Shown here: positions 413-49,193 of the stretch, piece after piece | How positions within the stretch are numbered: the first letter of the stretch is position 1 | How the letters are laid out: every line of letters starts with the position of its first letter | From: an uncultured archaeon | Lineage (GTDB): Archaea; Thermoproteota; Nitrososphaeria_A; Caldarchaeales; Calditenuaceae | Length of the DNA: 64,000 bases | Reading direction: 5' to 3' | Assembly (NCBI GenBank): GCA_938017985.1 | Contig: CALIKS010000035.1 | Span: forward strand, 7,146-71,145 | Notes under the pieces: model-generated | The model's database searches: none | What the model saw: only the letters and a program-made list of their open reading frames with translations | What the model was told of the DNA's origin: nothing | Position numbers and translations under genes: made by a program

Positions 413-1582
413 GTGTCTGCTTTTCTGATAGGCGTTGTCTCAGTTTTACTCAGCTACGGCATCTACATCTTCAGCGGTCAGGGAAGCATCTGGGGAATCA
501 CTACCGGAGAATCAAAGATAGGTGGATGGGTCTGGAGACAACTCGGAGCACAAATAGAGCAGTTAAAATACTTCCAGCAGTTCAAGCTAACACCACTACT
601 CGAAGACCCAACGCAACTAGTAGTAATCGCAATACTAATCGGAGGCCTTTCTGCCGCCCTCTTGAGCCGAAGCTACGCATTTAAGCACTTGCCTGGAAAA
701 TACATGCTCGTACAAGCAGTAATTGGTGGATTTCTTCTCGGATACGGTGCCAGGCTTGCCCTTGGATGCAACATTGGAAACTTCTTCTCAGCATGGGCTG
801 CAGGAGGAACACACGCAGTCATATTCACGGCCACGCTCTTGGCCGGCTCATTCATAGGCTTCAAGATAACAGAGAGAATATTCCTAAGAGGAGCCAAGCC
901 CTTCAAATTCAACTATGCACCAAGACAGAATACACAACTATTAACTGGAATCTTAGTATTGGCATTATCTTTGATATTCACCACCACTCTTAAACCAATC
1001 TCCGCTATCTGGTGGCTAGCTGGAATAGCATTCGGCGCACTGGGATGGATTTCAACAATCTGCTTTGCAACATGTTACAGAGACATAATCGCGCCTAAAT
1101 ATGCAAGCGGCATCATGGTCCGCGCCGTTGGAATCGCAATCTTAACCTACGGCTTCGGAATCTTCATACTACAGCTATTAGGAATTCCATTTAAGTTCGG
1201 AACGCCGCCGATTGGACAGCTTCAAGTAGCCCTAGGAGGAGTAATCTTCGGACTCGGAATAGGAATCTCAGGTACATGCATATTCAGCAGCGAGTGGAGA
1301 GCAGGCGGAGGCAGCATATACTCCATGATTGTCTTCGCATCAACAATTCTTCTGGGCATGCCTACGCTGGCATTTCACTATGACTGGTGGCTCACAATAC
1401 TTCCACAAGACCCCAGACCAATAACCCTCTACAGCTACGGACCAATATACGGATTTATCGCTCCACTAATTTTCTCACTCACACTGATTAGCTACGGCAT
1501 CTACGTCGACACATCCATGAGGAATACAATCTCCTCCATAATCACAAACAAGATACCCATAAGAATTCTCAGAAGAGGATAA
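413..1582 (+). CDS. yeeE: YeeE/YedE family sulfur-compound (thiosulfate) transporter
   Basis: 389-aa polytopic membrane protein. Two conserved Cys-containing half-helix motifs (LALGCNIGNFFSAWAAGG and GIGISGTCIFSSEW) are typical of the YeeE/YedE 'sulphur transport' family. GTG start. Paired with the TusA-like gene. Confidence 0.8.
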   Translation: MSAFLIGVVSVLLSYGIYIFSGQGSIWGITTGESKIGGWVWRQLGAQIEQLKYFQQFKLTPLLEDPTQLVVIAILIGGLSAALLSRSYAFKHLPGKYMLVQAVIGGFLLGYGARLALGCNIGNFFSAWAAGGTHAVIFTATLLAGSFIGFKITERIFLRGAKPFKFNYAPRQNTQLLTGILVLALSLIFTTTLKPISAIWWLAGIAFGALGWISTICFATCYRDIIAPKYASGIMVRAVGIAILTYGFGIFILQLLGIPFKFGTPPIGQLQVALGGVIFGLGIGISGTCIFSSEWRAGGGSIYSMIVFASTILLGMPTLAFHYDWWLTILPQDPRPITLYSYGPIYGFIAPLIFSLTLISYGIYVDTSMRNTISSIITNKIPIRILRRG

Positions 1583-1622
1583 AAACCAAATTCATACCAA
1601 TTTTTTATCAAGCCTAAAAAAG

Positions 1623-1772
1623 AAATAATTAATTATGTCAAAACAATTATAAAGATTCATAAACAATATATTATAGAGATGAACAATTCGCTCAACAATA
1701 CAAAAACAATAAAAATAAAACAAGAAGACAAAGTGTTAAGCAATTTTCATGATAAGCCTCCACCTGCTTAAC
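1623..1772 (-). repeat. Intergenic repeat copy A (hairpin plus promoter-like block), inverted relative to copy B at 47667-47843
   Basis: The reverse complement reads GTTAAGCAGGTG...ATGA...TTGCTTAACACTT (stem GTTAAGCA/TGCTTAAC, 1733-1772), then TTTATAATTGTTTTGACATAATTAATTATTT (1653-1623). Identical 12-, 13- and 14-mers are shared with copy B, and the second block matches 27/31. Confidence 0.8.
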
Positions 1773-1791
1773 AAAAAAATAAAGATAAAAC
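1773..1791 (-). terminator. Oligo-T tract directly after the BMP gene stop (putative archaeal terminator)
   Basis: The minus strand reads GTTTTATCTTTATTTTTTT immediately 3' of the stop codon at 1792-1794. Archaeal termination commonly uses T-runs. Confidence 0.4.
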
Positions 1792-3117
1792 CTACCTAGG
1801 AAGCGGAGTCTCAACATACTCTACGTGCCAATCCATCTCCCAAAGCATCTTCCGATCAGCACGCTGTCCAGGACCAATCCTCACATTCCCATCCTGATCC
1901 CTAATAGGCTCACCGAGATTACCCTCAGGCGAGAAAGGCTCAAACACCAACTCCTTCATCTCCTCATAACGCTGCTTAATCTCAAGCTGAGTCTCAGAAG
2001 GAATAGCCGGGTTCAGAGGCGCTAAATAAACAGTACCCTCAGGCTGACCAGCCCTACTCTCCTCGACAGGCATCCTCCACCTCCAGTCCATCATGTCGCC
2101 GATACGCGTCCAGATATCTACCGGCCTCCAACTGTTCGAGAGAATCATCCTGTAAAACTCAGCATAGATAGGAGCCCAATCAACAATCTGTCCAGTCAAA
2201 TGAGCATTAGGACCATACTCCCTCATATCGCTATAATGACTAAAACTCCAAACCCTCCTACCCTTCTTCGTCGTATACTCCTCAGCAACCTGCAAAACAG
2301 TCGGAGTATCCTCAGTATAGGCCAAAACATCAGCACCAGTCTCCTCAATCAAAGCAACAGCAGCATCCCTAGCCTTGGGCGGATCAACCCAAGAAAAGAT
2401 CCAGTTAACATACGCCTTAATATTCCTACCAGTCCTCCTACGATAAGAAACATTAGCACCAAGCACAAACGCATTAATATGCCTCACAACCTCAGGAATC
2501 GGAAAAGCACCAACATAACCAACAACACCACTCTGAGTAACAGCACCAGCAGCCAAACCATTCAGATAATAAAGCTGATAAAACTCAGCAAAAGCAGTAG
2601 AAAGATTCGGCGTCGTCCTGTCAGCACCAGGCGCAGCACCACTCCTATAACCAGAAATATGAACAAAATACTTATCAGGATTCTTCGCAGCAGCCTCAAC
2701 CATCGCATTCATAAAACCAAAACTACAAGCAACGATCAACTCAGCACCCTGAGCCAACAAAGTACTGATGGCGGCAGGAGCACCCTCATCCCTAACATTC
2801 TCGATGTAAGAACTCGACACTCCCGCAACCATCTTATCCGCACTCCGCCTACCATTGTCATGCGCATAAGACCAGCCATAATCCTTCGCAGGCCCAGGAT
2901 AGAAATAGCCAGCCTTAAGAGTCCTAGCCTTCTCGACAGTAACAGACGAGGTAACAACAGAAGTCGAAGTAACGGTAGGAACAGAAGAAACACCCGCATA
3001 ATAACCACCAACACCACCAATCAAACCAGCAGCGACTACGCCGCCTACCGCTGCACCCTTAGCGACGCCGAGAAACTCTCGTCTAGATACTTTCTTACTA
3101 ATCTGAGGTTTACTCAT
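1792..3117 (-). CDS. BMP/PnrA-family ABC substrate-binding protein (nucleoside/sugar type) with twin-arginine signal
   Basis: 441 aa. The N-terminus MSKPQISKKVSRREFLGVAKGAAVGGVVAAGLIGG is an SRRxFLG Tat motif plus h-region, followed by a Thr/Ser/Val linker and a BMP-like body. It lies divergent to the matching ATPase and two permeases. The coding strand is strongly G/T-ending in codon choice. Confidence 0.8.
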   Translation of the reverse strand: MSKPQISKKVSRREFLGVAKGAAVGGVVAAGLIGGVGGYYAGVSSVPTVTSTSVVTSSVTVEKARTLKAGYFYPGPAKDYGWSYAHDNGRRSADKMVAGVSSSYIENVRDEGAPAAISTLLAQGAELIVACSFGFMNAMVEAAAKNPDKYFVHISGYRSGAAPGADRTTPNLSTAFAEFYQLYYLNGLAAGAVTQSGVVGYVGAFPIPEVVRHINAFVLGANVSYRRRTGRNIKAYVNWIFSWVDPPKARDAAVALIEETGADVLAYTEDTPTVLQVAEEYTTKKGRRVWSFSHYSDMREYGPNAHLTGQIVDWAPIYAEFYRMILSNSWRPVDIWTRIGDMMDWRWRMPVEESRAGQPEGTVYLAPLNPAIPSETQLEIKQRYEEMKELVFEPFSPEGNLGEPIRDQDGNVRIGPGQRADRKMLWEMDWHVEYVETPLPR

Positions 3118-3237
3118 CTCGGCGATGAGTTGTCCAAGAACTTATTTATACTTAAGTTGCATCATCATGTAAAATTTCATGGACCAAAACCAAAAATAAA
3201 CGTAATATTGAAATACGGAGAAAGACAGGTCCAAGAC

Positions 3238-4776
3238 GTGGAAGATAACAAGAAAAAAGAAACACTCGTAGAGATGATAGGCATCGTCAAACGCTTCCCA
3301 GGAGTAATAGCAAACGACAACGTGGACTTCACACTTATGCCGGGAGAAGTACACGCATTACTCGGCGAGAACGGAGCAGGAAAGACCACACTCATGAACA
3401 TTTTGTATGGACTCTACCGTCCAGATGCAGGAATGATAAAAATCGAGGGAAAGACCGTGAGTATAAGCTCGCCGAGCAGGGCGATTAAACTAGGCATAGG
3501 CATGGTCCACCAGAACTTCAGACTAATTCCAACACATACGGTAGCCGAGAACGTCATACTTAACTCTCCAAACACTGGTTTCTTTATTAACTGGCAGAAA
3601 ATATACGATGAACTGAAGAAACAAATATCTAAGTATGGATGGAGAATAAATCCTGAAGCGAGAGTATGGCAGCTATCAGCAGGTGAAAAACAGCAAGTAG
3701 AAATCTTAAAGCTTCTCTACAGGGGGTCAAGGATACTTATCTTCGATGAACCTACGAGTGTCCTTACGCCTCAGGAGTCCAGAATGCTATTCACGACGAT
3801 GCGAAAGATGGCTGAGGAGGGGAAGGGCGTAGTTCTCATCACTCATAAGCTTGAGGAGGCACTAAGCGTCAGTGACAGAGTTACAGTGATGAGGAAAGGA
3901 AAAGTAGTCTTGGTTAAGTCAACGTCCATGACTACTCGAGAAGAATTAGCATTAGCCATGATTGGCAGACAAGAGATCACTCAGCTTCCAAGTCAAGGAA
4001 GCTCAAAGCCGAGCGTTCCTATTCTTTCTATAAGAAATCTTGTAGTTGAGGGTGATAAGGAAGAGATTGCGGTTAATGATGCGTCCTTTGATATTTACAA
4101 GGGAGAAATACTCGGAATAGCAGGAGTAAGTGGTAATGGACAAGTCGAACTTGCAGAAGCAATAGCACGGATAAGAAAGATTAAGTCAGGCAAAATTCTG
4201 CTTGAGGGGAGGGACGTATCCTCATACTCACCTCGACAGATGTATGAAAACGGCGTAGCCTACATTCCAGCAGAAGGGGCAAGGACAGGAGTTGTCTCTG
4301 ATTTAACAGTAATGGAAAACATGATTCTTAAGTGTTATCGATACCCACCTTATTCAGACAAACTTTTAATCAAGTGGAGGGAGGCAGCAAAGCTTGCGAA
4401 CATGCTAGTAGAGAAGTATCAGATAGTCGCTCCGAGCATCAATGCGAAGGTAAAGACGTTATCTGGTGGAAATGTACAGCGCTTAGTCCTAGCAAGGGAA
4501 CTTTTAGGAAATCCATTAACAAGTCCAAGGCTAATAATCGCTGTCTATCCGACAAGTGGGCTTGATATAGGCGCCGCCGAATATGTCAGGACTAACCTTA
4601 TAGAGATGCGAAATGAAGGGGCTGGAATACTGTTGATAAGTGAAGATCTCGATGAATTGCTAAGAATGAGTAATAGAATAGCGGTAATGTATGGTGGGAG
4701 AATAGTAGGAGTCTTCGAAGGCAGCCAAGCATCAAAGGAAGTGATAGGCATGCTAATGGCGAGGGGCGCAGGTTAA
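3238..4776 (+). CDS. ABC transporter ATP-binding protein, duplicated ATPase (BMP/simple-sugar type)
   Basis: Two Walker A sites (GENGAGKTT, GVSGNGQVE) and two signatures (LSAGEKQ, LSGGNVQ). The track ORF 2200-4776 is over-extended. The likely start is GTG 3238 (MEDNKKKETLVEMIGIVKRFPG) or ATG 3274. Confidence 0.85.
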   Translation: MEDNKKKETLVEMIGIVKRFPGVIANDNVDFTLMPGEVHALLGENGAGKTTLMNILYGLYRPDAGMIKIEGKTVSISSPSRAIKLGIGMVHQNFRLIPTHTVAENVILNSPNTGFFINWQKIYDELKKQISKYGWRINPEARVWQLSAGEKQQVEILKLLYRGSRILIFDEPTSVLTPQESRMLFTTMRKMAEEGKGVVLITHKLEEALSVSDRVTVMRKGKVVLVKSTSMTTREELALAMIGRQEITQLPSQGSSKPSVPILSIRNLVVEGDKEEIAVNDASFDIYKGEILGIAGVSGNGQVELAEAIARIRKIKSGKILLEGRDVSSYSPRQMYENGVAYIPAEGARTGVVSDLTVMENMILKCYRYPPYSDKLLIKWREAAKLANMLVEKYQIVAPSINAKVKTLSGGNVQRLVLARELLGNPLTSPRLIIAVYPTSGLDIGAAEYVRTNLIEMRNEGAGILLISEDLDELLRMSNRIAVMYGGRIVGVFEGSQASKEVIGMLMARGAG

Positions 4777-6865: not shown

Positions 6866-6926
6866 ACTGACATTATTGGGGAAATTTATTAATTACTTAT
6901 TCACGCCTCATTTAGGGGAATAGCCT

Positions 6927-9353
6927 ATGTCTCAAGACAAAGAGCAAAAAATGATTATTTGGTTCGAAGAGCTGCAAAAAGAAGACATACCACTAGTCGG
7001 CGGAAAATGCGCAAATTTAGGCGAGATGATAAACGCAGGAATACCAGTACCGCCGGGCTTCGCCGTCACCGCCTACGCATACAAAAAATTTATAGAAGAG
7101 TCTGGAATCGCTGAAAAAATCTATGATATCTTGGACGAGACGATTAAGGATCCGAAAGACCCAAAGCAGTATGAGGAGGCTTCAAAGAAGATTAGATCGC
7201 TCATCGAATCAACGCCGATGCCTAAAAACATTGAAGATGAGATATTAAGGGCCTACAGAGAATTAAACAAAAGATTAGGATTAAAAGAAGTCTTCGTTGC
7301 GGTGAGATCTTCTGCAACTGCTGAGGACTTGCCTGGAGCATCATTCGCCGGCCAGCAGGATACTTATCTCAACATTAGGGGAGAGAAAGAACTCTTAGAC
7401 AGTGTCAGGAAATGTTGGTCGAGCCTATTCACTCCGAGAGCAATATTCTATAGGACAGAGAAAGGATTCAGACATGAGAGAGTATTGATAAGCGTCGCTA
7501 TACAGAAGATGGTTAACAGCAGGTCTGCGGGAGTAATGTTTACACTCCATCCCGTCACGGGTGACAGAAACAAAATAGTAGTAGAGTCTGTCTGGGGCCT
7601 GGGGGAAGCCATAGTCTCTGGAGCAGTGACGCCTGACCATTTCGAAGTTGATAAAACATCGTTAAAAATAATTGCTAAGAGCACAGCGAAAAAGACAGTC
7701 GAATACGTTAGAGATGCGAAGACTGGGAAGACCATTCATGTAGAGGTGCCGCCAGAGAGGCAAGAAGCGCCTAGTCTAACTGAAGAAGAGGTTATAGAAT
7801 TAGCAAGAATCGGAAAGAAAATCGAGGAGCATTATGGCGTCCCACAAGACATTGAGTTTGCAGTCGACAAAGAACTTACGTTCCCGAATAACATTTTCAT
7901 AGTTCAGTCGAGGCCTGAGACTGTCTGGAGCATGAAGGAAACCGTGTCTACTTCATCTTCATCAACCATAACTTCAGTCGCCGAGGCGAGAATTGTCCTT
8001 AAGGGTCTACCTGCGAGCCCAGGCATCTATTCTGGCAAGACTAGGATCGTCTTATCTCCTGAAGACGCGGCGAAGAAGATTCAGAAGGGAGATATCCTAG
8101 TTACTAAGATGACTAATCCTGATTGGGTTCCCTACATGCGTCTTGCCGGGGCAATTGTGACTGATGAGGGTGGAATGACCTGCCACGCAGCGATAGTTTC
8201 TAGGGAGCTAGGGATTCCATGCATCGTTGGATCAAAAGAAGCAACGAAACTACTAAGGGACGGCGAGACATACACAGTTGATGCTAGGTCAGGCGTCATA
8301 TATGAGGGGCTAATTGAGGAGCTTGTTAAGCCAGCTGAAAAAGCTGCACCTACGGCGGTTGCCGTAACACAGGCGCCAGTAATTACCGCGACCAAAATCT
8401 ATGTGAACATCAGTATACCTGACATTGCCGAGAAAGTCGCTAAGGAAACTCAGGCCGATGGTGTAGGTTTACTTAGAGCGGAGCACTTGATGCTTAGCGT
8501 CGGAAAACATCCGAGATTACTTATTGAGGAGGGCGGCGAGGAAAAGATGGTTCAAGCATTCGCTGAAGGCATTAGGATGGTTGCGCAGGCCTTTTATCCA
8601 AACCCAGTCGTGTATAGATTCTTGGACTTCAAGCCTGACGAATTCTTAGCCATGCCGGGAGGTGAGAAATACGAGAAGGAGGCGGGACACGTTGGGCCAA
8701 ACCCACTGATAGGCTACAGAGGAGCTTTCAGATACATCAAGGAGCCGGACATCTTTAGACTAGAGTGCAGGGCAATAAGAAAGGTTAGGGAAGAGTATGG
8801 ATTAAAGAATGTCTGGGTCATGGTGCCATTCGTAAGAAGAGTTGAAGAATTCATAGAAGCTAAAAAATTAATGGAAGAAGAAGGGCTAAGACAGGGCCCA
8901 GACTTCAAGGTCTGGATAATGGTCGAGGTGCCAAGCACAGTTCTACTTATCGATAAATTCATCGAGGCGGGAATAGATGGCGTCAGCTTTGGGACAAACG
9001 ACCTCACAATGCTGATACTTGGAATAGATAGAGATGATGCCGCAGTTCAAGAAATATATGACGAGAGAAACCTCGCAGTCAAGAGAGCTATAAGCCAAGT
9101 AATAAGAATGTGTAGAAGGCACGGCGTCACAACCAGCGTCTGTGGACAAGCACCATCAAACTATCCCGAGATCGTCGAGTTCCTGATAAGAGAAGGCGCG
9201 ACCAGCATATCAGTTAATCCAGACAAAGTAGTCGAGACAAGAAATCTAGTCGCATCACTCGAAAGAAAAATAATGCTGGATGAGCTCAGGTCCTTGAAAG
9301 AAAAGATAGACTCAATCAATCAAAGCAAACGAGAAAACACATTTGAGTGGTAG
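6927..9353 (+). CDS. ppsA: Phosphoenolpyruvate synthase (pyruvate, water dikinase)
   Basis: 808 aa with an ATP-grasp N-domain (FEELQKEDIPLVGGKCANLGEM), a phospho-His swivel domain (DEGGMTCHAAIVSRELGIPCIVG) and a PEP-utilising TIM-barrel C-domain. Confidence 0.92.
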   Translation: MSQDKEQKMIIWFEELQKEDIPLVGGKCANLGEMINAGIPVPPGFAVTAYAYKKFIEESGIAEKIYDILDETIKDPKDPKQYEEASKKIRSLIESTPMPKNIEDEILRAYRELNKRLGLKEVFVAVRSSATAEDLPGASFAGQQDTYLNIRGEKELLDSVRKCWSSLFTPRAIFYRTEKGFRHERVLISVAIQKMVNSRSAGVMFTLHPVTGDRNKIVVESVWGLGEAIVSGAVTPDHFEVDKTSLKIIAKSTAKKTVEYVRDAKTGKTIHVEVPPERQEAPSLTEEEVIELARIGKKIEEHYGVPQDIEFAVDKELTFPNNIFIVQSRPETVWSMKETVSTSSSSTITSVAEARIVLKGLPASPGIYSGKTRIVLSPEDAAKKIQKGDILVTKMTNPDWVPYMRLAGAIVTDEGGMTCHAAIVSRELGIPCIVGSKEATKLLRDGETYTVDARSGVIYEGLIEELVKPAEKAAPTAVAVTQAPVITATKIYVNISIPDIAEKVAKETQADGVGLLRAEHLMLSVGKHPRLLIEEGGEEKMVQAFAEGIRMVAQAFYPNPVVYRFLDFKPDEFLAMPGGEKYEKEAGHVGPNPLIGYRGAFRYIKEPDIFRLECRAIRKVREEYGLKNVWVMVPFVRRVEEFIEAKKLMEEEGLRQGPDFKVWIMVEVPSTVLLIDKFIEAGIDGVSFGTNDLTMLILGIDRDDAAVQEIYDERNLAVKRAISQVIRMCRRHGVTTSVCGQAPSNYPEIVEFLIREGATSISVNPDKVVETRNLVASLERKIMLDELRSLKEKIDSINQSKRENTFEW

Positions 9354-19182: not shown

Positions 19183-20421
19183 ATGAAGAATATCGACTTT
19201 AAAACACTTGATGACTTAGAAGCAGCTGGCAAGAGAATATTGGTAAGATGTGATTTTAACTCGCCTATTGACCCAGTCTCAAAATGCATTATTGATAATA
19301 CAAGAATAAAAATACATGCTGAGAGTACGATTAAAGAATTAATAGAGAAAAAAGCGAGAGTTGTCATAGTTGCTCATCAGGGAAGACCTGGAGATCCGGA
19401 CTTCACGACTATGAAGGAGCATGCTAAGATACTTTCAGACCTACTTGAATCTCCAGTAAGCTACATTGATGACATCGTAGGTGAGAAGGCACTTAATGCA
19501 ATTACTTCAATTAATAAAGGTGAAGTACTCGTTCTTGAGAATGTAAGGACGCTACCATATGAAATGAAGACTGGTAGGCCAGAGGAGCATGCAAAATCAG
19601 AACTTGTAAGCAAACTCGCCCCACTTTTCGACTGCTTCGTCAATGATGCATTTTCAGCGTCCCATAGGGCTCATGCATCAATTGTTGGATTCACAGCTGT
19701 TCTTCCGAGCTATGCAGGAAGAGTTATGGAGAGGGAGCTCAAAGCGCTCATTAAAGTTTCGACGAGCCCAGAGAAGCCCTGTGTATATGTTTTGGGAGGC
19801 GCAAAAGCTGATGATGCCTTAGCCATAACAAGGCACGTACTTGAGAAGGGCATAGCTGAGTATGTCTTAACGGGCGGCCTGGTTGCTCAGCTATATCTAT
19901 ATGCTCTCGGCTACGATTTAGGGCCAGTTAATACAAGATTTATTGAGGATCAAAAATTAGACCAATTTATATCAGAGATAAGGGACATTTTATCAAGATA
20001 CTACGAAGTGATAAGGCTCCCTAAAGATCTTGCAATTAATAAAGATGGCGTGAGAGCAGAGATATCGGTCAATGAGTTGCCTACAAGGTACCAAATAATG
20101 GACATTGGAACTAAGACTATTGAAGAGTATCGCGCGATACTTTCAGCCGCCCGATCCGTATTTATGAGCGGCCCAATGGGCGTATTTGAGAATAACCAAT
20201 TCGCGAAGGGTACTAGAGAAATTTTTTCTGCAGCTGCTGGAGAAAGCAGATTCACTCTGGCTGGTGGTGGACATACAGCAGCGGCAATCGAGAAATTCGG
20301 ACTTAAAGATAGGCTTAGCTACGTAAGTACGGCTGGTGGAGCATTGACTGAATACTTAATGGGCCGAAGCCTGCCGGGCGTCGAGGCACTGAAGGAGGCT
20401 GCTAGGAGAATGAATAAATAA
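19183..20421 (+). CDS. pgk: Phosphoglycerate kinase (archaeal type)
   Basis: 412 aa: ILVRCDFNSPID...DNTRI...VVIVAHQGRPG...GGGHT. Confidence 0.9.
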   Translation: MKNIDFKTLDDLEAAGKRILVRCDFNSPIDPVSKCIIDNTRIKIHAESTIKELIEKKARVVIVAHQGRPGDPDFTTMKEHAKILSDLLESPVSYIDDIVGEKALNAITSINKGEVLVLENVRTLPYEMKTGRPEEHAKSELVSKLAPLFDCFVNDAFSASHRAHASIVGFTAVLPSYAGRVMERELKALIKVSTSPEKPCVYVLGGAKADDALAITRHVLEKGIAEYVLTGGLVAQLYLYALGYDLGPVNTRFIEDQKLDQFISEIRDILSRYYEVIRLPKDLAINKDGVRAEISVNELPTRYQIMDIGTKTIEEYRAILSAARSVFMSGPMGVFENNQFAKGTREIFSAAAGESRFTLAGGGHTAAAIEKFGLKDRLSYVSTAGGALTEYLMGRSLPGVEALKEAARRMNK

Positions 20422-34423: not shown

Positions 34424-34527
34424 GGGCCCGTAGCTCAGCCTGGCTGGAGCGCTCGGCTGATAACCGAGAAACAATAGTCAGTGCTATTGTTCGGGAGAGG
34501 TCGCCGGTTCGAATCCGGCCGGGCCCA
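34424..34527 (+). tRNA. tRNA-Ile (anticodon GAU) with a ~29-nt non-canonical intron 3' of the anticodon stem
   Basis: Hand fold: acceptor GGGCCCG/CGGGCCC, D-arm GCTC-AGCCTGGCTG-GAGC, anticodon arm CTCGG-CTGATAA-CCGAG, insert 34469-34497 (contains hairpin AACAATAG-TCAGTG-CTATTGTT), variable AGGTC, T-arm GCCGG-TTCGAAT-CCGGC, discriminator A. No encoded CCA. Confidence 0.85.
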
Positions 34528-44430: not shown

Positions 44431-45336
44431 CAATTTACATAATAAAGCAGCTGAAGTATGCATCCTATTCTCTGCCTGATTAATGATTATTGAAGATGGT
44501 CCGTCTGCTACTCTTTCCTCGACCTCTTCTCCCCTCTTCATAGGCATGCAATGCATAAACTTTACATCTGGTTTCGCTAGCCGCATCAGTGTTTCCGTTA
44601 CTTGGTACCGGGGAATAAAGACCTTAAGCTTTATTTCTCTCTCTAATTCTTGTCCCATCGATACAAAAACATCTGTATAGATGAAGTCAGCATCTCTTAC
44701 TGCTACTTCCGGATCATTTGTAAATTCTACTTTTGCCCCAGATAGTTTAGCCCATGAAAATGCCTGAGCCTTAATAGTCTCATCTACTTCATAGCCTCTA
44801 GGCGATGCTACCGAGATATCGACTCCGACTAATGCGCATATCTGTACAAGCGAGTTGCAGACGTTATTGCCGTCTCCTATGTATGCCACCTTTAAACGTT
44901 CTTTATCTCCGCCGTACTCCATCATGGTCATCAGGTCTGCGAGGGCTTGGCATGGATGATGTTTATCAGTAAGTGCATTGATGACAGGTACTGAACTATG
45001 ATTAGCCAATTCCACAATTGTCGAGTGACTAACTACTCTTGCAACTATTGCGTCGACGTATCTGGATAGTACTCTTGCGGTGTCTTTTATTGGTTCTCCT
45101 CTTGAAAGTTGTAGTTCGGTTGATGGTAGGAAGATTGTTTCTCCGCCGAGTTTGTAGATGGCTGAGGTGAATGAGACTCTTGTTCTTGTTGATGGTTTCT
45201 CGAATATTAGTGCTATTATTTTTCCTTTTAGTGCGTTGCTTGGGTAACTGTCTCTCTTGAATTTGAGTGCCAACTTGATGATCTCTAGGACTTCTTCCTT
45301 CTTCATGTTTGAGAATTCTATGAAGTTTTTTTCCAT
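44419..45336 (-). CDS. argF: Ornithine carbamoyltransferase
   Basis: STRTRVSF, HPCQALADL and HCMP motifs. 305 aa. Codon style switches abruptly near 45,060. Confidence 0.9.
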   Translation of the reverse strand: MEKNFIEFSNMKKEEVLEIIKLALKFKRDSYPSNALKGKIIALIFEKPSTRTRVSFTSAIYKLGGETIFLPSTELQLSRGEPIKDTARVLSRYVDAIVARVVSHSTIVELANHSSVPVINALTDKHHPCQALADLMTMMEYGGDKERLKVAYIGDGNNVCNSLVQICALVGVDISVASPRGYEVDETIKAQAFSWAKLSGAKVEFTNDPEVAVRDADFIYTDVFVSMGQELEREIKLKVFIPRYQVTETLMRLAKPDVKFMHCMPMKRGEEVEERVADGPSSIIINQAENRMHTSAALLCKLLGC

Positions 45337-45445
45337 GATTATCGTTTTACTGTCATTTATTGGTCGTATTTATTTCTTAGTCCTTCGATTTGGCTATGCT
45401 GTAAACCTTTACATTTGACTATGTTATCTGTGTTTGGTATCCGTC

Positions 45446-47191
45446 ATGTCGGAGTTTGAGATACGTGGGGCTAGGCTTTCGAGCGATGTGTTGAGGGTGC
45501 TCGGAGCTATCTCTGCTCCTGAGAGGGTTAGGATTCTTTTTATGCTTGAAGGTGGTGGGTTGGGTTATTCTGAGCTTATGAGGGCTGTCGGTATGGTTAG
45601 GCGGAGGGATGTCGGTAGATTTTCTTATCATCTTAGGAGGCTGCTTGAGGCTGGGCTCGTCGAGGTTGATAGGGAGTCTAAGCTTTATAGGCTTAGTGGG
45701 CTTGGTGTCTCGGTCGTTGAGTTGCTTAAGAATCTTTCTCTGAGGGTTGATCTTGGCGGCGTTGTATTTGTGCGGAGGAGTTTTTCTCTTGTTGAGCCGT
45801 TTGATAAGCTTAGGATTGTTGATTCTTTGGTGGCTGAGGCTGGTGTTCCTGCGAGGGTTGCTGGTAGGATTGCGAGTAGGGTTGAGAATGCTTTAGTTGG
45901 GCTGGGTCTCAGTACTGTTGATTCGAGTGTTATTCGTTGTCTTGTTGGTTATGAGCTTTTGAGTCGGGGTCTTGGTGGTTATTTTTTGAGGTATTTCTTG
46001 GTTGGTCCTAGCATGTATGAGGTTTCTCAGGCGGTTAGGAGGGGGCTTGGGAGTGGTGATTCTCTGCTTGTTGAGGAGACGATTGTGAGTGATGTTTTGG
46101 GTCGTTATGTGTTTAGGAGGGTTTTGCCGAGGGAGCTTGTTGAGTGTTGTTATGACGGATTGGTTGAGCTTTATCGTCCTGATTCTTGGATTAATGCTTT
46201 TTTGGGTTTTGGGTTGTTGTCTGAGTCTCGGAGTGTTGGTATTGATGAGTTGTTTTCTGCGTTGTTGCGTTTTAGGATGGTTAGGGATGAGGTGGTCGTT
46301 GCTGGTCAGTCTGTTTCTTGGAATGTTGTTGATAGGCTTGTTGAGTTGTTGAGGGGGGTTCGTTTTGGTTCTGCTGGACTATATGTTTGTTCTCGTGCTG
46401 ATTTGCTTAGTGGTAGGTTGGGGATGTTGGAGGGGCTTGTGGCTCGTGAGGACTTGATGTGTTCTTATTCGTTGCTGGATGGTTATGTGAGTCTCTCTCG
46501 GCTCGCTGATGGGTTGGTGCTTTTTAATTCGTTTGGTAGGCTTGGTGTCGGCGGGTCTTCTAGAGTCGTTGTGGGTGGGCTGTTCGGTGTTAATGTTGGA
46601 GGCATATTTCTTAGGAGTGAGGGCCGCGTGAATCTTGTCTTGTCTAGGCTTGGTGAGTTGTTGCGGCATGTTCTTCAGGCAGTTATGCGGAGGCATGGCT
46701 TCTTGGACAGGTTGCATCGAGAGTTGGGTGGTGTGCCTTGTTATTATTTTGTGGCTCCTGTCGGTCTTAGGGAGGTCTTAGGCGTGGTGGGTTCTGGTGG
46801 GTCGTCGAGCGAGGCGTCGAGGTTTCTTAGGGATGTTCTGTCTGTTTTTAGGGATGTTCTGTCTGGTTCTTCTGGGAAGAGGTTGAAGATTGTGACGGCT
46901 TCTGTGTGGCCTAGTGTTGTCTCTGAGAGTCTCTTTAAGCGTGATGTTGCGTCTCTTGGTTCTCAAGTTGTTTCGAGGGTTTTGGGGGGTGTTGGTGGAT
47001 ATTCTAACTGCTTGTTTGATTTTTCGTGTCCTGGCCTCGAGGAGACCATCCATGAGGTTGCTGGTTATTTTGACGCTGGGCTTGTTGTTCCTGTTGATCT
47101 TTCATTGGCTGGGGCTCGTGAGTCTCTTGGTAGGCTCTACGAGATGCTTGGTCTGGCTGATAATTTAGTCTTGAGGCTTAGGCGGTCTTAG
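45446..47191 (+). CDS. ArsR-type wHTH + ATP-cone + degenerate NrdD-like domain protein (uncharacterised architecture)
   Basis: wHTH: VLRVLGAISAPERVRILFMLEGGGLGYSELMRAV...FSYHLRRLLEAGLVEVDRESKLYRLS. ATP-cone: VFVRRSFSLVEPFDKLRIVDSLVAEAGVPARVAGRIASRVENAL...SSVIRCLVGYELLSRG. The segment VLPRELVECCYDGLVELYRPDSW parallels NrdD LLPRDVVQAHERGDIHYHDLDYS. Start is ATG 45446 or TTG 45434. Caveat: the region is so A-poor that all six frames are open. Confidence 0.65.
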   Translation: MSEFEIRGARLSSDVLRVLGAISAPERVRILFMLEGGGLGYSELMRAVGMVRRRDVGRFSYHLRRLLEAGLVEVDRESKLYRLSGLGVSVVELLKNLSLRVDLGGVVFVRRSFSLVEPFDKLRIVDSLVAEAGVPARVAGRIASRVENALVGLGLSTVDSSVIRCLVGYELLSRGLGGYFLRYFLVGPSMYEVSQAVRRGLGSGDSLLVEETIVSDVLGRYVFRRVLPRELVECCYDGLVELYRPDSWINAFLGFGLLSESRSVGIDELFSALLRFRMVRDEVVVAGQSVSWNVVDRLVELLRGVRFGSAGLYVCSRADLLSGRLGMLEGLVAREDLMCSYSLLDGYVSLSRLADGLVLFNSFGRLGVGGSSRVVVGGLFGVNVGGIFLRSEGRVNLVLSRLGELLRHVLQAVMRRHGFLDRLHRELGGVPCYYFVAPVGLREVLGVVGSGGSSSEASRFLRDVLSVFRDVLSGSSGKRLKIVTASVWPSVVSESLFKRDVASLGSQVVSRVLGGVGGYSNCLFDFSCPGLEETIHEVAGYFDAGLVVPVDLSLAGARESLGRLYEMLGLADNLVLRLRRS

Positions 47192-47197
47192 CTCCTT

Positions 47198-47599
47198 CTA
47201 CTGCCTTGACGTTTTTAGGGCTAGGATGGCTTTTGCGAGGTCTCCTTCTGCCTCGATGAGTGCTGCCTTTGCTTGTTCTTCGGTTACGCCTGCCTGCATT
47301 GCTACGATTGTTATGTCTTCTGGCGATGGCTCGTATGTTGTTGGCTTGGCTTCTATTTGCTGTGTTTCTTCTGTTTCTTCGCCGCCGATTATCTGGTAGA
47401 CTTTTCCTGCTGCTGTGTCTAGCGTGATGATGCTTGGATTGTTTATTCTTATTATTTTGTCGGTGAGTGTTATTGTGACTTCTTTTGCGGTTCCGAGTTC
47501 TTTCATCGAGACGCCTAGGCTGCTCATCATTCGGTCCTGCATTCTTCTTAGGTCTCTCGGTCCTAGACGTAGCGTTTTCTTCAATTGTTTTGACACCAT
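47198..47599 (-). CDS. nac: Nascent polypeptide-associated complex protein (NAC alpha homologue) with UBA domain
   Basis: NAC domain (MSSLGVSMKELGTAKEVTITLTDKIIRINNPSIITLD...YQIIG) and C-terminal UBA (EDITIVAMQAGVTEEQAKAALIEAEGDLAKAIL). Confidence 0.88.
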   Translation of the reverse strand: MVSKQLKKTLRLGPRDLRRMQDRMMSSLGVSMKELGTAKEVTITLTDKIIRINNPSIITLDTAAGKVYQIIGGEETEETQQIEAKPTTYEPSPEDITIVAMQAGVTEEQAKAALIEAEGDLAKAILALKTSRQ

Positions 47600-47666
47600 T
47601 CTTATTCTTGTCGGGGTATGCTTTATCTGTTTTGCTAATTGTGATGGAAATTTACTAGTAGGTGGT

Positions 47667-47843
47667 GGTGTTAAGCAGGTGATTTTTTATGATTTTTGCT
47701 TAACACTTAGTTCTCTTTCTATTTGGTTTTTCTGGGTATTGCTGCGCCTTAGTGGATTTGTAGCCTCTGCTATTTTTTGACTTCATTCCTACCTAGTAAT
47801 CTGTATTACATTTTTATATTGATTTTGAGATAATTAATTATTT
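47667..47843 (+). repeat. Intergenic repeat copy B (10-bp-stem hairpin plus TATA/promoter-like block)
   Basis: GTGTTAAGCA-ggtgattttttatgatttt-TGCTTAACAC (47667-47705), then TTTATATTGATTTTGAGATAATTAATTATTT (47813-47843). It is homologous to the inverted copy at 1623-1772. Confidence 0.8.
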
Positions 47844-47933
47844 GTTTCTCATTTGTCGTATGTCTGTGTATTTCACGGTATAGGTTATATTTATAAGGTA
47901 TTTTTTTCAGACTTTGTTTTTAGGGGCTCATAT

Positions 47934-49193
47934 TTGACGAGTATTTCTGACCTGAAGGTTATAATTCCTGTTGGTGGTGAGGCGAAACGTCTCAAGCCCC
48001 TTACTGCAGAGGTCTCGAAGGCGCTTGTAAGGTTCATGAACATGCCTCTTGTCGAGCATGCTATGGTCAAGCTTGCATGTCAAGGAGTTAGAGAATTTAT
48101 TTTTGGGGTTAAGGGCTATGTTAACTATAAGAGCCTCTATGATTATTTCCAAGAGGGTGAGGGCTTCTCGTCTAAGCATAATCTGAGTCATAATGTGCGT
48201 ATTTTTTATCAGCCCAACATTGACGATTTAGGCAGTGCAGACTCGGTGAGGTTGAATTTAGAGTATTATGATATTAATGATTACTTAATGGTTATTCAGG
48301 GCGATAATGTATTTGACATTGACCTTAGCGATGCGTTCTCTTTTCATGTCGAGAAGGGTGCGCTTATGACTATTGCTCTTACTCGTGTCTTGGATGTCGA
48401 GAGGTATGGCATAGCAGAAATGGATGAAGACATGAGGATTCGTAGGTTTATCGAGAAGCCGAGGAGGGGAGAGACCTCATCAAGCCTCGCAAATACTGGA
48501 ATATACATTATCTCTCCAGAGATTCGTAAAATTCTTTCAGGAGAAAAAGTGTCGAGGATTATGAGCGAGAGGAGGAGACTTGACTTTGGAATGGATTTAA
48601 TACCAATGCTCGTTGAAGAAGGATATCCTATCTATGGATATCCACTGCGGGCCGAGTGGTACGACGTCGGTACGCCCGAGACATACCTAGAATCAATGAT
48701 AAAGCTGCTTAAGAGTAGTAACGCATCCAAGTATCTAGGCGATACAGTGGACTCGTCCAGTAAACTATGGATTCAGACACATGACTCGGAGGATAATAAG
48801 AATAGGGAATCACTCATCAAGAAGATTAGGGACGGTAAAATAAGAATCGAGGGAGCAGCGCTCATAGGTAGACACTGCCAAATAGGCGACAATGTCGTAA
48901 TAAAGGATTCATGCATTGATAACTTCTCTATCATTCTCGACGATGCAGTAGTTGAGAGGTCAGCGATACTTGACAGGGTAATCATTGGCAAAGCGGCTCA
49001 GATACGTGATAGCATAGTCTCGAGACACGTAAAAATATTATCTTCCAGAAACAATCCCACGATGGTTGGAGATATCAGCGTCATCGGCGACGACGTCTGG
49101 GTTAGTGAGGGATGTGCAATAGTCGGGACAAAGATTTATCCACATCTACATATTCCTCCGAATAGTCGTCTCGTGAATGAGACGATTACGTGA
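47934..49193 (+). CDS. Sugar-phosphate nucleotidyltransferase with C-terminal left-handed beta-helix domain
   Basis: KVIIPVGGEAKRLKPLT (GxGxRL-type motif) with hexapeptide-repeat-like C-terminal segments. I prefer TTG 47934, because the track start at 47853 adds 27 non-conserved residues. Confidence 0.75.
   Translation: MTSISDLKVIIPVGGEAKRLKPLTAEVSKALVRFMNMPLVEHAMVKLACQGVREFIFGVKGYVNYKSLYDYFQEGEGFSSKHNLSHNVRIFYQPNIDDLGSADSVRLNLEYYDINDYLMVIQGDNVFDIDLSDAFSFHVEKGALMTIALTRVLDVERYGIAEMDEDMRIRRFIEKPRRGETSSSLANTGIYIISPEIRKILSGEKVSRIMSERRRLDFGMDLIPMLVEEGYPIYGYPLRAEWYDVGTPETYLESMIKLLKSSNASKYLGDTVDSSSKLWIQTHDSEDNKNRESLIKKIRDGKIRIEGAALIGRHCQIGDNVVIKDSCIDNFSIILDDAVVERSAILDRVIIGKAAQIRDSIVSRHVKILSSRNNPTMVGDISVIGDDVWVSEGCAIVGTKIYPHLHIPPNSRLVNETIT

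Follow-up and report, generated by a model that had tools for sequence, protein, structure and literature searches.

The REP/BIME elements of enterobacteria and pseudomonads are short imperfect palindromes with an internal asymmetry, lying strictly between genes, past their 3' ends and often between convergent ones, in a defined orientation, and being conserved in sequence more than mere pairing would demand. The intergenic module dealt with here—an inverted repeat followed at some distance by a TATA-like block and a palindromic box—is like them in all these features, but it occurs in about 12 copies instead of hundreds, is archaeal, possesses the box as a second, A/T-rich palindrome and is not accompanied by a RAYT/Y1 transposase gene. 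Concerning the skew islands adjoining the module, i.e. zones rich in G+T on one strand, we know of no report of a kilobase-scale one-strand skew in the genes flanking REPs.

Polar cis sites are represented also by Chi, acting with RecBCD/AddAB, and by resection hot spots (PMC7615360); the module as read below would share with them a site-sense strand that is 3'-ended and single-stranded on the 5' side for kilobases, a distal end without sequence definition and deamination-type changes peaking off the break. The footprint of the module is, however, one-sided and not a mirror image, and it is saturating at silent sites, whereas Chi, again unlike the module, is an octamer that recurs about every 5 kb. 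To our knowledge, no Chi-like system is known in archaea.

The islands themselves resemble the R-loop-prone, GC-skewed promoters and terminators of eukaryotes, where the non-template strand of a transcription unit ending at a pause or terminator element has an excess of G+T and G-rich RNA favours hybrids. As a transcriptional asymmetry they would nevertheless be unusual, since they overrun the borders of units into divergent genes, are far stronger than any asymmetry reported and concern about 15 units only. A single-stranded strand turning G+T-rich by deamination of A and C is exemplified by the heavy strand of vertebrate mitochondrial DNA, in which the OL stem-loop—like the module, a hairpin on the exposed strand—marks a possible start of complementary-strand synthesis; the mitochondrial skew is, however, genome-wide and tied to a defined replication mode, while the islands cover about 2 kb each at a dozen chromosomal sites and lack a defined point of start. 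Finally, in the oriT of conjugative elements (inverted repeat plus nic), an inverted repeat lies, as in the module, beside the start of a directional single-strand transaction, and the DNA-uptake sequences of Neisseria form inverted pairs after genes, doubling as terminators; the module differs from both in copy number and is unrelated to them in sequence. In the literature searched, no description has been found of kilobase-scale, saturating, element-linked strand islands in archaea.

The module in the window and its anatomy

The window, i.e. the whole 64-kb stretch of DNA analysed, corresponds to positions 7146-71145 of contig C35 in a 72-contig, 1.63-Mb assembly of an uncultured archaeon (G000). 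It has been compared with assemblies G001 and G002, the three being fragmented metagenome bins that represent three species of one genus; the sister species G002 is the MAG Nitrososphaerota archaeon JZ-1_201705_bins_35. Two copies of the module, A and B, are present in the window as the sequence-only reading had described them, with coordinates correct to within 1-2 nt. The features are as follows:

1392..3076, minus strand: skew island A, G+T-rich, keto skew 0.31, containing the BMP gene from about codon 15 on, copy A and the 3' end of the YeeE-like gene
1623..1653, minus strand: TATA-like block and box of copy A, core ATAATTAATTAT at 1636-1625
1733..1773, minus strand: inverted repeat of copy A, arms at 1773-1765 and 1742-1733
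45048..48410, plus strand: skew island B, G+T-rich, keto skew 0.39, containing the first ~100 codons of a minus-strand carbamoyltransferase-like gene (named by eye from the sequence), the wHTH/NrdD-like gene (45434-47191), the NAC gene (47198-47599, minus strand), copy B and the 5' end of an NTP-transferase gene
47668..47706, plus strand: inverted repeat (hairpin) of copy B, arms GTGTTAAGCA (47668-47677) and TGCTTAACAC (47697-47706), T-rich 19-nt interior
47707..47812, plus strand: spacer of copy B, T/G-rich, poorly conserved
47813..47843, plus strand: TATA-like block and palindromic box of copy B, sequence TTTATATTGATTTTGAGATAATTAATTATTT, core ATAATTAATTAT at 47830-47841

Pairwise alignment of the two copies reveals shared blocks and little else, the exact blocks being 12-14 nt long. 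The hairpin of copy A begins 18 nt past the TAG stop (1794-1792) of a gene for a BMP-family binding protein, and some 40 nt lie between its box and the point where the convergent YeeE-like gene (413-1582) ends. In copy B, the second block TTTATATTGATTTTGAGATAATTAATTATTT starts 104 nt past the hairpin string quoted in the sequence-only reading; its hairpin folds as DNA with -7.9 kcal/mol (z -7.3) and its spacer is identical at 0.65 of positions to the orthologous spacer in G002, the paralogous background being 0.56.

An alignment of the copies bears out the description of the unit as a hairpin with a TATA/BRE-like block as a fair account of its anatomy. The inverted repeat is asymmetric, consisting of TGTTAAGCA, 19-22 nt that contain a run of 4-9 T, and TGCTTAACA; between the arms there are 4-6 variable nt, (G/A)ATTTT, a short loop and GAAAAT, and the right arm may be extended to TGCTTAACA(C). 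This right arm, TGCTTAACA, is unchanged in 22 of 22 copies, and the left arm varies by C>T or A>G only. The covariation of the stem that the sequence-only reading had proposed to look for is missing: there are no compensatory changes in the 22 hairpins, none of the 14 pairs being altered on both sides, six of them never vary, and the one-sided changes are C>T or A>G, which yield wobbles. Folded as DNA, the hairpins reach -5.6 to -8 kcal/mol at 37 °C, a stability that is marginal for a hot-spring organism. With the invariant right arm, the lack of compensatory changes and the marginal fold taken together, the hairpin is read here as a sequence-specific, probably protein-bound site rather than as a self-sufficient structure.

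The spacer is 76-147 nt long and drifts nearly freely, being no more conserved between orthologous copies (identity 0.52-0.75) than between unrelated, paralogous ones (0.56). The distal blocks are a short TCATC and a TATAAT-like block, the latter followed after about 10 nt by (C)TGAcATAATTAATTAttT; the far end of the module is thus formed by the TATA-like block and the palindrome ATAATTAATTAT, mostly adjoining the end of a convergent gene. The only conserved parts are the arms and the box, and these retain A and C within zones nearly devoid of silent A and C; such retention against a saturating bias points to selection acting on both of them. The module is best read as a sequence-specific DNA site that is probably bound by a protein.

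Copies in the genus and their position relative to genes

The sequence-only reading had supposed a dispersed element and had suggested counting its copies in the genome and in relatives; what emerges is a family of copies, occupying orthologous sites in the sister species. BLAST and pattern searches of the G000 genome revealed no fewer than 12 hairpins, the box accompanying 11. Besides A and B, they are found on contigs C1, C4 (two), C15, C17, C20, C38, C42, C43 and C53, and there is one box module without a hairpin (C43:27312). The pattern GTTAAGCA-N12-26-TGCTTAAC occurs nine times in G000, nine times in G002 and twice in G001, as compared with just one of 57 other genomes searched from the same family and order, and the reversed control pattern gave no occurrence; the match is thus far beyond chance. 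With a stricter pattern, repeated matches among 185,579 species genomes scanned (one genome per species) were confined to G002, and a scan of metagenomes returned G002-like contigs plus chance copies in unrelated DNA. Outside the genus, both scans yielded for the hairpin only such chance copies, without box or skew. The module is restricted to one genus of hot-spring archaea.

At least nine module loci are orthologous in G002 or G001. Copies B, C17, C20, C53, C1 and C42 correspond to loci L025, L029, L028, L023, L024 and L022, respectively; the first C4 copy (C4a) corresponds to locus L031 of G001, C38 to the rpl2 loci of both G001 and G002, and A to a site on contig C5 of G002. Copies A and B are, in other words, members of a genus-specific, vertically inherited intergenic module.

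Concerning the neighbouring genes, the hairpin starts 2-31 nt past a same-strand stop codon or 3-17 nt past a tRNA 3' end in 9-10 of the 12 copies, and in the genus as a whole no fewer than 11 of 18 copies have a convergent gene whose 3' end comes to within 10-100 nt of the box. A same-strand gene follows the module in only 3-5 of the 18, among them the C1 copy, with its box 36 nt upstream of the ATG. The runs of 4-9 T inside the repeat, the further T-runs after it and the position just past stops would suit an archaeal intrinsic terminator; the extragenic imperfect palindrome in fixed orientation past gene 3' ends is equally that of REP/BIME elements. Gene order across the module is mostly kept in the sister species, so that nothing indicates a rearrangement hot spot.

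Identities considered for the module

Several identities offered for the element found no support. A small structured RNA gene, lying between the promoter-like block and the hairpin in either direction, was suggested by the distance of about 100-190 nt between the two. It now appears very improbable, because the Rfam 15 covariance-model scan of the window at the gathering score found only a tRNA (34424-34527), no compensatory pair exists in 22 copies, the spacer is unconstrained in both sequence and length (76-147 nt) and the folds of the whole unit as RNA are weak on both strands (z -2.4 and -1.8).

The notion of a MITE-like remnant fared no better. The copies have only short motifs in common, full-length similarity failing at a paralogous spacer identity of 0.56, i.e. 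about background; at least nine loci are orthologous between the species; the inverted repeat is confined to the left end, the right end being an unrelated A/T palindrome and not a terminal repeat; and no duplicated flanks were seen in an alignment of 21 copies. The module is not a recently mobile MITE. An element of the REP/BIME type with RAYT, or one derived from IS200/IS605, likewise gained no support, as the Y1 HUH transposase or TnpB it requires was not found: Y1 transposase (PF01797) had no match in G000, G001 and G002, in searches that recovered their positive controls, and TnpB (PF07282) had none in G000 or G002, the genomes being 83-93% complete. Reverse transcriptase (PF00078) was detected solely on the small contig C10 of G000 and neither in G002 nor in G001, though both have islands; this, together with a BLAST of the genome that showed no second copy of the island genes, speaks against retro-homing and a diversity-generating retroelement. 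A replication origin with Orc1/Cdc6-linked ORB repeats, including one between A and B, is not supported either, orc1 being on contig C43, away from copies A and B, and the skew being one-signed and not antisymmetric at the module.

The opposite orientation of copies A and B had further led to the idea that they are recombination substrates flipping the intervening 46 kb. This is hardly credible: the longest exact block common to them measures 14 nt, and G002 is collinear: on its contig C5, the BMP gene lies at 11.0-12.3 kb (minus strand) and the copy-B hairpin at 56.4 kb (plus strand), with spacing and relative orientation kept.

Nature of the skew and the genes affected

The strand running from the hairpin to the box has been stripped of nearly all synonymous A and C, whatever the orientation of the genes. 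Third positions in island genes contain about 0-3% A and 4-9% C regardless of gene orientation, as illustrated by the wHTH gene of island B (A.03, C.08) and the BMP gene of island A (A.03, C.09, G.34, T.54), the G+T at third positions of the outgroup BMP genes being.39 in G005 and.47 in G003. The minus-strand NAC gene in island B has, on its own strand, T.01 and G.19 at third positions, and the 5' ends of divergent neighbours carry the same complementary bias, which means that the skew tracks the DNA strand and not the gene. The excess of G over C in the islands is about twofold.

In the ribosomal operon, third positions of rpl4, rpl23 and rpl2 contain A 0-.05 and C 0-.11 (rpl2: A.01, C.06, G.36, T.57), and rpl23 of G002 has neither A nor C there, whereas the composition of rpl3, the gene that directly precedes rpl4 on that strand, is normal (A.26, C.20, G.24, T.30). 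In first and second positions and in amino-acid identity to outgroups, the skewed genes match rpl3, i.e. the skew is nearly all at third positions, and the protein sequences of island genes are conserved. In 16 outgroup genomes, the orthologous operon is throughout without hairpin and without skew; the outgroup BMP gene lacks the skew, too. Changes polarised with 14-16 outgroup genomes amount to 0.23-0.28 per site for C>T vs 0.01-0.03 for T>C and to 0.10 for A>G vs 0.01-0.05 for G>A, this asymmetry being missing in rpl3. Since G000 and G002 differ by about 20% in their proteins, yet both are saturated, the bias must be ongoing or actively maintained.

Link between the module and the islands

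The keto skew, (G+T)-(A+C) in 600-nt windows, has a genome-wide standard deviation of 0.073, and only 0.8% of the windows exceed 0.3 in absolute value. G000 contains about 25 islands, totalling 29 kb. Eight of the 12 copies of the module occupy the downstream shoulder of an island of 1.3-3.4 kb that is G+T-rich on the hairpin's own strand; an upstream skew of at least 0.25 accompanies these 8 of 12 copies as compared with 0.52% of random oriented positions (P = 2.5e-16). The co-localisation with skew islands, which the sequence-only reading had itself named as a test, is hereby confirmed, and its observation that the copies read in the strand of their island that is rich in G+T is true genome-wide, the orientation being fixed: the module is always at the 3' side of the island and never at the 5' side. 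Four more large islands abut contig ends on the side where the module would be expected.

In a meta-profile aligned on the hairpin and oriented from there towards the box, 8 of the 11 profiled copies (8 of 12 with the later-found C42 counted) show a skew of +0.3 to +0.56, with the far edge at about -1300 to -3000, the near edge at about -180 to +740 and a flat profile outside. The peak is near -1400, in the form of a hump 1.2-1.8 kb away, and the skew is weaker beside the hairpin; it extends over 1.3-3.4 kb on the hairpin's 5' side and 0.1-0.7 kb past it, in the case of copy A even weakly through the whole convergent gene. A like profile was obtained at 7 of 9 copies in G002 and at 2 of 2 in G001, and chance copies of the inverted repeat in unrelated metagenome contigs exhibit no skew. 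As for the remaining four hairpins of G000, three (C1, C4b and C43) are preceded by an island on the same strand at a distance of a further 1.6-3 kb, across genes of normal composition; the fourth, C42, lacks an island, and its left arm is broken. At this C42/L022 locus, the species with an intact hairpin displays a skew of.25 in the proximal 1 kb vs 0-.12 in the one with the broken left arm.

A search for a motif shared by the 5' edges of 15 islands gave nothing above random, the module being thus the sole conserved cis feature found. These edges fall within genes, e.g. about 14 codons into the BMP gene; at 3-4 loci the island extends upstream for 240-660 nt beyond the first sense gene, into a gene transcribed divergently from it, and at loci A and C38 the skew sets in no more than about 50 nt from where the first gene starts. 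One island, C1:41201-42600, terminates at a convergent junction without a hairpin.

It should be pointed out that the skewed zones are wider in distribution than the hairpin. In G001, with few intact hairpins and a much weaker skew overall, the hairpin and box have degenerated at loci A and B, and the MTAP and rpl2 loci have kept them intact, but third-position G+T is.72-.80 at all four, so that no per-locus dependence on the hairpin is visible there. A pattern requiring G or T as the third base of 30 consecutive codons matches 17 times in G001, 298 times in G000 and 836 times in G002. Such NNK stretches are frequent in numerous other genera of the order in which this hairpin is lacking, and one family has none. 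In G021, a member of another genus, no shared element was found at the island ends of contig C2. The same genome has one mirror-image pair of islands within a large methyltransferase-like gene.

Origin of the skew

A>G together with C>T on a single strand is the mark of DNA that is often single-stranded, as known for the mitochondrial heavy strand, for non-template strands and for resected DNA. As our first choice, held tentatively and with somewhat less than even confidence, the module may be the fixed polar anchor of a recurrent, resection-like process that leaves the hairpin-sense strand single-stranded. The process would begin at the module or close by with a nick or one-ended break, followed by resection of the complementary strand in the 5'->3' direction, going upstream in a Chi-, oriT- or hot-spot-like manner and exposing the hairpin-sense strand; A and C of that strand would deaminate at hot-spring temperature to give A>G and C>T, purifying selection would confine the accumulation to silent sites, and the distal edge of the island would be the reach of the process, which fits the missing motif at the 5' edges. 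At human meiotic breaks, it is the forward strand that is single-stranded on the left side, and D-loop-distal DNA gains more deamination (PMC7615360); by analogy, the geometry of the footprint—sense strand exposed on the 5' side, a hump 1.2-1.8 kb off and a weak effect at the site—looks like human meiotic resection. Leftward transcription from the box and a leftward replication fork starting at the module are both excluded by the sign of the skew, as either would expose the other strand. What favours resection is that no conserved cis feature other than the module was found, that the edges ignore gene borders and orientation, that rpl3 is spared, that the peak lies off the site and that, at C42/L022, the proximal skew is stronger in the species whose hairpin is intact. 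Against it stand the three hairpins with islands further upstream, the behaviour of G001, the skew running on past the hairpin, the NNK-type stretches in many hairpin-less genera together with the lack of a shared end element in G021, and the mostly conserved gene order, without sign of a rearrangement hot spot.

A close second to resection, possible though rather doubtful, is a transcriptional origin, according to which the repeat with its T-run terminates the sense unit, the box is the next promoter, and R-loops or heavy transcription expose the non-template strand, which deaminates; the resulting G-rich RNA would stabilise further R-loops. The hairpins following stops or tRNA 3' ends tightly and in sense orientation (9-10 of 12 copies, with runs of 4-9 T), the sign of the skew being that expected of the non-template strand, G at about twice C and the onset of skew near the first gene's start at loci A and C38 all agree with this; the skew beyond the hairpin could be read-through, and both the islands without hairpins and the hairpins without an adjoining island, as well as the independence of the G001 skew from hairpin integrity, are in line with it. 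It is less compatible with the 3-4 islands that start within a divergent gene, the unaffected rpl3 directly upstream of rpl4, the antisense NAC gene inside island B and the lack of a common promoter-like motif at the 5' edges; an invariant arm without covariation would also be unusual for a generic terminator stem, and only about 12 genomic units have the module. The gapped loci C1, C4b and C43 are explained by neither resection nor R-loops. That the module is a passenger, i.e. a selfish or neutral element inserting or surviving best where an unrelated process often makes the strand single-stranded, seems unlikely to us. The hairpin-less NNK stretches of the order, the G001 islands and the strand-specific insertion of bacterial elements that act on single-stranded hairpins (IS200/IS605 and REP/RAYT) would speak for it, but neither a Y1 transposase gene nor a TnpB gene was found in G000 and G002, the copies are orthologous between species with motifs instead of full length conserved, the arms and box withstand the saturating bias, indicating selection, and the module is only ever at the island's 3' side. 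An ordinary operator or promoter site of a small regulon, with the nearness to islands being secondary, is more improbable still: two invariant half-sites resembling the site of a dimeric DNA-binding protein, the lone box at C43:27312 in the same TCATC/TATAAT context and the C1 box, placed before its ATG as the TATA box of a leaderless mRNA would be, would suit it, yet in at least 11 of 18 copies the flanking genes converge on the module, leaving no gene downstream for it to regulate, and the oriented skew (P = 2.5e-16) is left unexplained.

Returning to resection, a wider version of it, which we put forward as a conjecture, is that the module could be a programmed polar site for single-strand DNA transactions of the Chi, oriT or hot-spot kind, exposing about 2 kb at a dozen sites, the footprints in other genera being lineage-specific versions of it.

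Implications

As the islands show, local mutation pressure can lower A and C at silent sites of ribosomal-protein genes to about 0%, and such saturation of silent sites matters for analyses of codon usage, dN/dS and horizontal transfer. Gene calling is affected, too, because the A+C-rich strand of the islands, having no stop codons, yields long spurious ORFs. A simple pattern test, K at every third base, can serve for detecting these zones in other genomes.

If the module does anchor a strand-specific DNA process, it would be the first such cis signal recognised in archaea, found from sequence alone. In the case of a programmed site, the activity would be readable from its saturating A>G/C>T footprint in essential genes. 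As an anchor of such a process, the module would offer a handle on the recombination, repair or R-loop biology of uncultured hot-spring archaea, with the invariant arms available as protein bait.

Skew beyond the module and its possible reach into protein composition

The two copies of the module in the window, i.e. a hairpin with a T-run followed by a spacer, a TATA-like block and a palindromic box, accompany skew islands, the kb-scale zones rich in G+T on the strand of the hairpin. The features of the window concerned here are as follows:

413-1582 (+), YeeE-like sulphur-transport gene
1623-1773 (-), module copy A
1392-3076 (-), island A, with the gene of a BMP-family binding protein
2200-4776 (+), 858-aa open reading frame
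45048-48410 (+), island B
45434-47191 (+), wHTH (ArsR/DUF7347) gene of island B

The YeeE-like gene is convergent with copy A and lies downstream of it. Over its full length, 72% of its third positions are A+C (.67 and.75 in the sister species G002 and G001, respectively), and its third-position G+T of.28 is about 3 SD below the genome mean for long ORFs (.49, SD.07); island A thus continues weakly beyond the module. Concerning island B, the wHTH protein, sharing only 63% identity with its sister-species counterpart, has, as judged by eye, a very high content of V, L, G, S and R, and therefore the skew may reach protein composition too. The G001 orthologue is broken by ~100 N between duplicated flanks (locus L033 from contig C16, about 6870-6970 of the reverse complement); this run reflects a gap in the assembly or masked sequence, not a genuine insertion.

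Modules, boxes and island ends in the source genome

Four islands of the source genome reach contig ends, each on the side expected for the module, where the repeat may break the assembly:

C15:83451-85050
C35:1-800
C55:1-650
C30:7351-8200

Two modules are immediately preceded at their 5' side by tRNA genes (C15, about 80465-80540; C20, about 19350-19424), with both tRNA genes inside skew islands, the gap between the tRNA 3' end and the hairpin being 3 nt and 17 nt, respectively. A lone TCATC / TATAAT / GAGACATAATTAATTATTT block, with neither hairpin nor skew, is found at C43:27295-27380 (-), so the box can exist independently of the hairpin. The genome also contains a reverse-transcriptase domain (PF00078, E = 1.4e-44; C10:1036-1659, -), which is part of an open frame (436 aa) carried by a small contig; the two sister species lack it.

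Skewed stretches in other genera and gene calling

Runs of 30 consecutive codons with G or T as the third base, estimated by chance at less than about one per genome, occur frequently in many of the order's genera that lack the hairpin (e.g. G021, G024, G030, G054 and G005), with none in one family (f2) among the relatives' genomes scanned. G021 shows a mirror-image skew at C2:205900-211400 (loci L084-L085), which lies within a methyltransferase-like gene (1236 aa) and continues past it: 2.3 kb on the left are G+T-rich and 2.3 kb on the right A+C-rich, and between them is an A/T-rich centre of 0.8 kb with normal composition.

Stop codons are nearly absent from the A+C-rich strand of an island, as seen in the window (2200-4776, +) and, similarly, on other contigs (e.g. 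C4:42805-38807), which gives long spurious N-terminal extensions or antisense ORFs in mechanical ORF lists. The 858-aa frame is one example, its first ~300 residues being antisense to the BMP gene. Skew islands may be mis-annotated by gene callers.
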